DNA of 64,000 nt, taken from Sediminibacterium sp. Its GTDB lineage: Bacteria > Bacteroidota > Bacteroidia > Chitinophagales > Chitinophagaceae. Where the stretch lies: the NCBI GenBank assembly GCA_036170555.1, contig JAVHPL010000005.1, positions 529 through 64,528 of the forward strand. The letters run 5' to 3'. The translations under genes and the position numbers were made by a program. Each line of letters starts with the position of its first letter. The first letter of the stretch is position 1. Under the pieces are notes generated by a model that had not been told where the DNA came from, searched no databases, and worked only from the letters and a program-made list of their open reading frames with translations. Shown piece after piece: positions 50,499 to 52,317 of the stretch.

Positions 50499-51587
50499 AT
50501 GAAATCCATTTTACAGCAAGTAGTTTTAAATAATACCATTGAAAATTTTCTTTATGTGACAATGGTATTGCTAATGGTATTTGTACTAAAGCGAATCATC
50601 TCTAAATATGTAGCCAAGCTTTTATTTAAATTGCTTGGGAAAGCCAGTAAAAGTATTGCGAGAGAGTCATTTTTAAATTTAGTGGTACAGCCTTTAGATT
50701 TATTTTTAGTAATCTTCATAAGTATGATTGCTTTAGATAGATTATACTTTCCAAATGCCTTTGATTTTACTATTTTCAGAATTACTTCTCGTAATCTCAT
50801 AGATGCGCTTGCAGATGGTATTTTAATAATTGCTTTTATATGGCTTTGTTTGCGAGTTATTGATTTTATTGCAATGATTTTAGAAGAAAAAGCCAACACA
50901 ACTGCTGATCAAACAGATAACCAGCTCATCATCTTTTTTAAAGATTTTTTTAAGGCAATCCTTATCCTGATTGGGGTATTATTAATTCTTCGATTTTCTT
51001 TTAATAAAAATATAGGGAGTTTACTTACTGGTTTGAGCATTGTGGGGGCAGCTTTGGCATTGGCAACACGAGAGAGTATGGAAAACTTGATAGCATCATT
51101 TATCATTTTTTTTGATAAACCATTTACCACTGGAGATCTAGTAAAAGTAAATGGCTTTACGGGTACTATTGAAAAAATAGGATTACGAAGTACTCGAATA
51201 CGCACATTAGAAAAAACATTTATTTCTGTACCCAATAAACAAATGGTAGATACCATAGTAGATAATATTTCATTAAGAACTCAGCGAAAGGCGGAATTTA
51301 AATTAGAGATAGATCTTAGTGCCAATGCCAATCAATTAAAAAAATTTATCACCCAAGTTAACTTACTTATTCAAACTCCATTTTCACAAAATAGTTTAGT
51401 ATACTTAATGGATACAGGAAAAAATGCGCATATTATTAGTATAGAATATTACACTACCATTGAACAAACCATTGAAACCTTTTTGCATAATAAGCAGCAA
51501 GTAACTTTAAATTTAATTGAATTGATGGAAGAGAATCAAATTAAATTAGCTGCATCTAGTACCGACATACGCGTTACAACTAATTAA
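50499..51587 (+). CDS. Small-conductance mechanosensitive channel (MscS family)
   Basis: ALALATRESMENL, FDKPFTTGD, GTIEKIGLRSTRIRT, VPN. Confidence 0.9.
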   Translation: MKSILQQVVLNNTIENFLYVTMVLLMVFVLKRIISKYVAKLLFKLLGKASKSIARESFLNLVVQPLDLFLVIFISMIALDRLYFPNAFDFTIFRITSRNLIDALADGILIIAFIWLCLRVIDFIAMILEEKANTTADQTDNQLIIFFKDFFKAILILIGVLLILRFSFNKNIGSLLTGLSIVGAALALATRESMENLIASFIIFFDKPFTTGDLVKVNGFTGTIEKIGLRSTRIRTLEKTFISVPNKQMVDTIVDNISLRTQRKAEFKLEIDLSANANQLKKFITQVNLLIQTPFSQNSLVYLMDTGKNAHIISIEYYTTIEQTIETFLHNKQQVTLNLIELMEENQIKLAASSTDIRVTTN

Positions 51588-52228
51588 TGGGCGTTGGCTA
51601 AGGAAGATTTTAATTGAAGTAGAAAATTTTTAAACCCAGTAAGGGATTGAACTAATTGTGTTTCTACAGAAATTTTTTGTTTATTATTTTTCAAATAGCT
51701 TTTAGCACCTTCAATAGAAAATTTACGTTGCCTTAGTAGAAAGTAAATAAGTTGTAAGTTTTTAATGTCTTCCACTCTAAACAACCGATCACCTTTTCTG
51801 GTTTTTCTAGGTTGCAAAATATCAAATTCATTTTCCCAGTAACGCAGTAAAGAGGTATTCACATTAAACCATCCAGCTACTTCACTAATTGAATAATATA
51901 ATTTTTGTTGAAGTATTTCGTCGTTGGGGATATCAATCAGATCGGCTACTGCATCTATTTCCTTAAAAGATTTTCTACCTCTCTTACCCAATTGTTTAGG
52001 TAATGCTTTGGATGTAGTATTTGCAGCAACTGTTTTTGGTTTAATCTTAACTACAATTTGTTCACTGGAATACACTATAGGATCTTCGGAAGAAGCCGGT
52101 GCTGCTAATGGGGAATTGTTAATTGGCAAATCTGCTTTTGCCAATACTGGCTGCTTCTTTTTTTTATGAGAAGCAACTGTGTTGATGGGCATGCCAAAAA
52201 GGTCTAACTGTTGCAGTGGTGTTGCCAT
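51584..52228 (-). CDS. MerR-family HTH protein with a long low-complexity N-terminal extension
   Basis: YYSISEVAGWFNVNTSLLRYWENEF...RKGDRLFRVEDI; the extension carries QLDLF and KRGRKS. Confidence 0.88.
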   Translation of the reverse strand: MATPLQQLDLFGMPINTVASHKKKKQPVLAKADLPINNSPLAAPASSEDPIVYSSEQIVVKIKPKTVAANTTSKALPKQLGKRGRKSFKEIDAVADLIDIPNDEILQQKLYYSISEVAGWFNVNTSLLRYWENEFDILQPRKTRKGDRLFRVEDIKNLQLIYFLLRQRKFSIEGAKSYLKNNKQKISVETQLVQSLTGFKNFLLQLKSSLANAH

Positions 52229-52317
52229 TTTATAAAATTAGCACCAATTTTTTCTTTTAACACCCTTAAAATGGTGCAGGTGGATAAGATGTAAGTATCT
52301 TGCCCTTTTAAGTAAAT

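Follow-up and report, generated by a model that had tools for sequence, protein, structure and literature searches.

The stretch of DNA analysed here, called the window throughout, comprises 64,000 nucleotides from a Sediminibacterium genome. Its interval 51584-52228 (minus strand) contains one long open reading frame (ORF), which encodes a protein of 214 amino acids (aa) with the N-terminus MATPLQQLDLFGMP. Judged by sequence comparison, this gene is the family-specific long form of a small, sensor-less MerR-type DNA-binding protein which is widespread in Bacteroidota. Close to its initiator methionine, the protein carries the peptide QLDLF, a candidate ligand of the sliding clamp DnaN, and it may be a clamp-tethered regulator. 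The features of the gene are:

51584..52228, minus strand: whole gene including the stop codon, encoding the 214-aa MerR-type protein (P0001), from ORF reading and translation
52196..52210, minus strand: QLDLF, residues 7-11, candidate β-clamp-binding motif at the extreme N-terminus, from conservation among orthologues
51986..52195, minus strand: disordered hypervariable linker, residues 12-81, predicted local distance difference test (pLDDT) 50-65 without secondary structure, unalignable between genera
51968..51985, minus strand: basic patch KRGRKS, residues 82-87, just ahead of the MerR domain, conserved in the alignment
51686..51895, minus strand: MerR_1 winged helix-turn-helix (HTH), residues 112-181, Pfam E 5.3e-16, pLDDT > 90, also matched by Foldseek
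51590..51673, minus strand: long C-terminal helix, residues 186-213, at the position of the MerR dimerisation coiled coil, from the AlphaFold2 model

In the Pfam scan, MerR_1 (PF13411) was the sole domain passing its cut-off (residues 112-181, E 5.3e-16, 58.9 bits compared to a cut-off of 21.6). The remaining rows were MerR and a chance match to DSPc, and the 214-aa protein gave no match to Mor which would place it in the Mor/C family. NCBIfam returned sub-threshold MerR-type matches only (CarH, HspR, MlrA, FtsR). An AlphaFold2 model was built on 27 orthologues. Residues 1-87 have a pLDDT of 50-65 and no secondary structure, and residues ~100-214 have a pLDDT > 85 and form a winged HTH followed by the long terminal helix 186-213. 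No C-terminal effector domain is present, since the protein stops at residue 214 right after the helix, like the sensor-less HiNmlR and MtaN. The leading Foldseek matches in the PDB were all MerR-family chains, among them HiNmlR, MtaN, CarH, BldC and the MerR-like domains of GlnR/TnrA and RacA, and the terminal helix aligns with the helix of HiNmlR and MtaN. The Foldseek E-value is only ~1e-3 despite a probability of 1.0, because half of the model is disordered. A profile search of PDB sequences concurs with MerR (3gpv, CarH, GlnR). According to the model, residues ~100-214 are a canonical minimal MerR module, i.e. winged HTH plus long helix without effector domain, behind a disordered tail.

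A preliminary description of this DNA, made from the sequence without database searches, had placed QLDLF at residues 7-11 (bases 52196-52210), followed by a P/K/A/S-rich stretch and a compact MerR HTH lacking an obvious effector domain. All of this was borne out: the translation gives the motif at these positions, residues 12-100 consist of P, K, A and S to 45% compared to 23% in the rest of the protein, and the MerR_1 match agrees with a model which ends at the terminal helix. The same description had also named an AT-hook-like patch, of which one half stands. KRGRKS is a real, conserved basic patch with G84, R85 and S87 invariant and K82, R83 and K86 conserved to ≥ 90% in the alignment of 27 genera, and an RGR-like patch occurs in 88 of 112 orthologues. 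As an AT-hook it was rejected, for the proline of the R-G-R-P core is missing and Pfam AT_hook gave no match at E ≤ 1.

Conservation of the N-terminal peptide and the start codon

Orthologues were collected from 121 genomes of the Chitinophagaceae, the family of Sediminibacterium, using one genome per genus. All counts refer to the genomes searched, in which relatives are not independent. A single copy of the MerR gene was found in 118 of the 121 genomes. The three genomes without a match (G006, G070 and G075) are small, with 1.4, 1.9 and 2.1 Mb at a completeness of 96, 100 and 79%, respectively, and the absence may reflect loss in reduced genomes. At all 118 loci, the open frame upstream of the MerR core was read. 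Two copies are cut by contig ends, leaving 116 readable ones, and 114 of these begin with an N-terminal peptide of clamp-binding type. The copies fall into the following classes:

Pentapeptide Q[LI]x[LI]F: 51 of 116 copies, with QLDLF itself in 35; the G034 copy counts only by virtue of an upstream frame set apart by a frameshift
Hexapeptide Q-[ILMVG]-x-[FLMI]-x-F: 42 of 116 copies, e.g. QITFDF and QISLDF
Q-less x[LP]x[LI]F: 21 of 116 copies, usually RILTLFGEE
Internal QLSLPV only: 1 of 116 copies (G058)
No motif: 1 of 116 copies (G028)

The motif sets in 0-9 residues past the start codon. Among 27 orthologues of different genera, Q7, L8 and F11 are invariant, and the next 40 to > 300 alignment columns are unalignable. 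Between the N-terminus and the MerR core lie 28 to 730 residues, with a median of ~95 (112 orthologues). A conserved short motif ahead of a disordered, unalignable linker of such varying length is typical of a tethered short linear motif. As far as the alignments go, the N-terminal peptide is the sole element of the N-terminal half which is conserved family-wide. An alignment of orthologues had been proposed with the preliminary description, and its outcome is a motif kept at the extreme N-terminus across the family in front of a hypervariable linker.

Larger databases gave the same picture. Nearly all of the 120 closest database proteins begin with M-x5-Q[LV]DLF, six being shorter gene calls which start inside or just after the motif; where named, these proteins are listed as 'MerR family transcriptional regulator [Sediminibacterium sp.]'. 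An exhaustive HMMER search with the alignment of 27 genera, run against 1.84 billion proteins (representatives of clusters at 50% identity), yielded 399 matches at E ≤ 1e-30. A penta- or hexapeptide form lies within the first 30 residues in 136 of the best 150 of these 399 matches; among the 14 without one, several gene calls are visibly truncated.

Two orthologues stand out by very long linkers of acidic, repetitive sequence, with proteins of 835 aa in L031 (G029) and > 560 aa in L032 (G034). In G034, a frameshift 559 bases upstream cuts off the N-terminal frame MQQLSLFD; this is a real break or else an error of assembly within the repeat. The alignment also revealed a second, semi-conserved linker element:

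52034..52081, minus strand: residues 50-65, PIVYSSEQIVVKIKPK, with the pattern [VI][VI][FY]x[DN]xxIxVK[IV]K

With a regular expression, this element was recovered from 13 of the 50 pentapeptide-type orthologues; the 62 others gave no match.

The chance occurrence of the motif was assessed in all six-frame ORFs of ≥ 60 aa of the 2.9-Mb genome. QL[SD]LF occurs in three unrelated frames, which are one spurious ORF of 66 aa and two ordinary proteins. The other terminal QLxLF matches of the genome, in proteins which their sequences suggest to be a secreted protein and an MgtE-like transporter, were rejected as chance. A lone QL[SD]LF is accordingly not beyond chance, and it is the conservation across relatives which raises the motif above it.

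Codons and upstream regions were compared in 49 pentapeptide-type orthologues. Within the motif, synonymous codons vary (CAG/CAA 24/25, five Leu codons, TTT/TTC 39/10), which argues for selection acting on the protein. An ATG at the position equivalent to M13, named in the preliminary description as a possible true start, is present in only 5 of the 49. The 12 bases before the ATG (window 52229-52240, minus strand) are kept across genera as TAnTTTTACAnn (orthologue loci L002-L030) and include a promoter-like box:

52233..52240, minus strand: TAATTTTA, -12 to -5 from the A of the ATG, family consensus TAnTTTTACAnnATG, from 49 upstream regions

In these 49 regions, T at -12 occurs 41 times, A at -11 38 times, TTTT at -9 to -6 37-42 times and C at -4 36 times. 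Promoters of Bacteroidota have a '-7' element TAnnTTTG. We infer that the box is such an element, with a transcript whose first base would be the A of the ATG or one adjoining it, and hence a leaderless mRNA. Apart from the box at -12 to -3, no palindromic operator was apparent in the 49 aligned upstream regions. Since the residues before M13 are conserved, M13 itself is not, and the promoter-like box abuts M1, translation is assigned to start at M1, and the downstream start falls away.

Distribution outside the family and genomic context

Outside the family, 301 genomes of the phylum were sampled at a threshold of E ≤ 1e-10, and the same MerR core was found in 225 of them. Other families belonging to this class and order have a protein of 109-116 aa which begins directly at the MerR domain (MPYKEKxIEKLYY...). 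In 7 of 12 loci (L154-L156, L158, L160, L163, L165), this short form has directly upstream, on its own strand, a gene for a Peptidase_M23 protein of ~320 aa, and the long form is likewise preceded by an M23 peptidase gene in 36 loci of the family (e.g. L069-L122). Because of this shared synteny, short and long forms are regarded as orthologous. In the window genome, the M23 orthologue is found on another contig (C92:95599-96567). Judged from synteny and copy number, the gene is chromosomal and vertically inherited. In two further loci, alaS is the neighbour.

The immediate neighbours of the gene are conserved over shorter distances. A divergent 3-hydroxyacyl-CoA dehydrogenase gene and a convergent MscS-like gene are syntenic only in closer genera, namely in 20 and 14 of the loci searched, and we posit no functional tie to either gene. 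In the window, the MscS-like gene occupies 50499-51587 on the plus strand, and its stop codon overlaps that of the MerR gene (51584-51587); these last bases are shared, which leaves no room for separate terminators.

A tree was computed from the MerR core alone, which has 113 columns and is weakly resolved. The 116 long forms stand on one side of a branch with a Shimodaira-Hasegawa-like approximate likelihood ratio test (SH-aLRT) value of 91. The motif classes are structured by clade, with an all-pentapeptide clade of 39 members, a mostly hexapeptide clade of 48 which holds seven pentapeptides, and a Q-less clade of 20 (support 99). This tree requires a minimum of 13 changes of motif label. 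From topology and label changes, the simplest reading is that the tail was acquired once and that functionally equivalent motif forms then interconverted by drift.

Orthologues from other classes of the phylum likewise begin with the MerR domain, but an insertion sets helix 4 apart from the terminal helix. The families f22, f24 and f44 have P[ED]x[DE]xGEQLEL[LIM] within this insertion in 12 of 12 loci (SEQLELI in one). Variants in the internal loop are QLQLL, QASLF and QTVLPF (twice) in f33, QLDFL in f35 and ELSLF in f48. The loci with internal motifs are L169, L178, L181, L188-L199, L207, L174 and L208. In a model of one such protein, QLELI (residues 90-94) lies in the sole internal segment with a pLDDT < 50 (residues 85-102). 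Going by these sequences, chance hardly explains why one protein family has a clamp-type peptide in two differently placed disordered segments.

Clamp tethering and its alternatives

The peptides were compared with the rules for clamp-binding motifs (CBMs) given in a 2024 review (PMC11139829). Natural CBMs are defined there as Q-φ-x-[L/M]-[F/L] and Q-φ-x-[L/M]-x-[F/L], and the penta- and hexapeptide forms bind about equally. QLDLF is named as the strongest binding peptide known, and the top binder from phage display is the hexameric peptide LQLELDF. The Gln is 'important but not necessary', as the δ subunit uses AMSLF, and acidic residues downstream of the motif are favourable. The peptide of the window fits the definition, lies in a disordered terminus and is conserved while its flanks diverge. 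Within the family, 51 penta- and 13 hexapeptide forms fit strictly, and the motifs are commonly trailed by G/D/E-rich residues. Compared by sequence, the three N-terminal peptide classes mirror the known CBM spectrum.

As a control within the lineage, DinB orthologues were examined in 40 genomes of the family. All 39 readable ones have Qxx[LMI]F followed by D, E or N, and one has exactly QLDLF. The two Y-family polymerases of the window genome (C41:27579-28742; C63; L166, L167) carry QGSLF and QGNLF ~40-60 residues before their C-termini. A pattern scan of the 1245-aa DnaE frame of this genome yielded no clear internal QxxLF. The DnaN of the same genome (L033:517-1629) has 371 aa, and DnaN of E. 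coli ranks tenth among its PDB matches.

The reading we favour, with chances only slightly better than even, is that of a probable clamp-tethered MerR-type regulator, whose tails bind DnaN and whose activity is coupled to the passage of the replication fork. The protein would form a MerR-type dimer on DNA via its terminal helix, and the two flexible tails of the dimer would capture both peptide pockets of a DNA-loaded DnaN ring. DNA would be contacted via the winged HTH, perhaps aided by the conserved RGRKS patch. Clamps loaded in replication would thereby recruit or activate the protein, so that promoter occupancy or output would be tied to fork passage. The clamp would serve as the regulatory input because the protein is without an effector domain. 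As tethers of 28 to 730 residues are tolerated, recruitment by local concentration appears more plausible than a rigid activation complex of fixed geometry. The ancestral linkage to an M23 peptidase gene hints, speculatively, at functions in the cell wall or in division. A replisome-tethered regulator had already been suggested in the preliminary description; motif conservation and the start at M1 both hold against the attempts to refute this idea, and clamp tethering itself is something we infer from the peptides.

A bolder version, which we consider doubtful, would make the DNA-loaded clamp the allosteric effector of a sensor-less MerR switch. Clamps left behind the fork would capture both tails and turn a promoter-bound dimer on or off, which would amount to a replication-timed transcription programme in Bacteroidota, possibly of cell-wall or division genes such as the M23 peptidase syntenic with the ancestral gene. 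This would require at least two inventions of the module within one protein family, one as an N-terminal tail in the Chitinophagaceae and one as an internal loop in other classes.

Several points weigh against clamp-coupled transcription. The transcriptional role is assumed only from membership in the MerR family, and neither an operator nor a regulon was found for the gene. Position 4 of the hexapeptide is Phe in 29 of 42 copies, where the E. coli-based rule permits only Leu or Met and where Phe weakened a test peptide (PMC11139829). The 21 Q-less copies resemble only the weak δ-subunit motif AMSLF. In the 39 genomes with a readable DinB, the DinB motif does not shift with the MerR motif class, which gives no co-variation argument either way. 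The short orthologues of other Bacteroidia have neither tail nor motif (12 of 12 loci and two more), and no obvious motif was seen in the families f29, f38, f36, f39, f45, f47, f49, f30, f18, f19 and f20, thus the core function does not need the motif. Finally, the neighbourhood contains no replication gene, and the gene is not close to dnaA, dnaN or oriC.

The first alternative is an N-terminal peptide which binds some other partner, e.g. RNA polymerase, a protease or adaptor, or a cell-division or M23-linked cell-wall protein, its likeness to clamp ligands being a coincidence. This is unlikely in our estimation, but it survives best among the alternatives. It would account for the Phe at position 4 and for the lost Gln, both at odds with the E. 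coli-based rules, and for the DinB motifs not co-varying with the MerR motif type. It is also favoured by the conserved block LTLFGEEIxPE of the Q-less clade, which is longer than a plain clamp motif needs. However, the range of variants (QLxLF, QxxLxF, xLSLF and QLxL[LIM]) is the very range known for clamp ligands, other classes show the motif again at a second, independent position, and the DinB of the family genomes has Qxx[LM]F. We know of no other bacterial motif with a QLxLF-like form.

According to the second alternative, the clamp is indeed bound, but the protein acts in replication or chromosome biology. It could control initiation or clamp availability like Hda or YabA, be a nucleoid or anchoring protein behind the forks like RacA, or undergo replication-coupled destruction. 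We rate this as improbable, a little more so than another binding partner. RacA, a chromosome anchor and one of the Foldseek matches, has the MerR fold as well, and the conserved basic RGRKS patch suggests DNA contact of low specificity. A tolerance of any tether length fits simple tethering, and we cannot name an equivalent of Hda or YabA in Bacteroidota, a vacancy which we count in favour of this alternative. Over-produced MuC, the late activator of phage Mu, titrates clamps away from the regulatory inactivation of DnaA (RIDA) and perturbs it by soaking them up (PMC12867686). Nevertheless, an AAA+ or DnaA-binding domain is absent from the protein, in which Pfam finds MerR_1 only, the short orthologues work without a tail, and the gene is not close to dnaA, dnaN or oriC.

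An artefact, that is, a true start at M13 or later or a functionless chance match, is essentially excluded: a few chance copies of QL[SD]LF do turn up among the six-frame ORFs of the genome, but Q, L and F are invariant over 27 genera despite synonymous codon change, the M13-equivalent ATG is rare with a promoter-like box right before M1, and the N-terminal motif is retained in 114 of 116 family copies.

Comparison with known systems

Among the sensor-less MerR proteins, HiNmlR, MtaN, BldC, the N-terminal domain of RacA and GlnR/TnrA resemble the protein of the window in having a winged HTH and a long helix without a ligand-binding domain, and they are its top structural and sequence matches. 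To our knowledge, none of them has been described with a clamp-binding tail. In concept, GlnR and TnrA offer a parallel for tail-based regulation, as they sense glutamine synthetase by a C-terminal tail.

Hda of E. coli likewise has its CBM in a disordered N-terminus (PMC11139829), but it is an AAA+ protein acting on DnaA, a domain which the MerR protein does not possess. In the late transcription of phage T4 by gp33/gp55 and gp45, a sliding clamp is the mobile activator of transcription (discussed in PMC12867686; abstract of PMC7892883). There, the clamp and the partners which bind RNA polymerase are phage-encoded, and no sequence-specific DNA-binding factor takes part.

The closest functional precedent is found in phage Mu, as reported by Ho and Harshey (PNAS 2026; PMC12867686). 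The late activator MuC has the N-terminus MQHDLF..., with QHDLF at residues 2-6, and a second motif QPDLF near its C-terminus. It binds DnaN in a two-hybrid assay, and it requires the motifs and the clamp for transcription in vivo as well as in vitro. MuC and Mor alike need the N-terminal CBM and the clamp for activation. An N-terminal Qx[D/E][L/M]F is common to Mor and about 100 members of its family, and the authors predicted that clamp-assisted transcription is more widespread. The statement of the preliminary description that no such role was described therefore holds for the MerR family in the literature searched and has to be qualified by this precedent. In our literature searches, a clamp-binding motif was not found described for any transcription factor encoded on a cellular chromosome, whether of MerR type or not.

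The known cases of clamp-dependent transcription all come from phages, i.e. T4 and, since 2025-26, Mu. If the proposed tethering is correct, bacteria themselves would use the sliding clamp as the signal of a just-replicated locus, and the gene would offer a first handle on cell-cycle-coupled gene control in Bacteroidota. The natural motif variants (QLxLF, QIxFxF, xLTLF and QLELL), together with tethers of 28 to 730 residues, would further constitute a mutational data set for clamp-ligand rules beyond E. coli.

The MerR protein shares with MuC and Mor the design of a small dimeric HTH factor with a near-consensus clamp motif right after the initiator methionine; in the MerR protein, the dimer is presumed and the motif is a candidate put forward from sequence. 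The DNA-binding folds are unrelated, with MerR_1 and no Mor match in the protein described here. Whereas the Mu genes are phage-borne, the MerR gene is cellular, single-copy and vertically inherited. Its product lacks a second motif at the C-terminus, and a disordered tether of 28-730 residues separates the N-terminal motif from the DNA-binding domain. A transcription factor bearing a clamp motif was hitherto known only from phage, and by analogy the MerR version would be the cellular counterpart of MuC and Mor.

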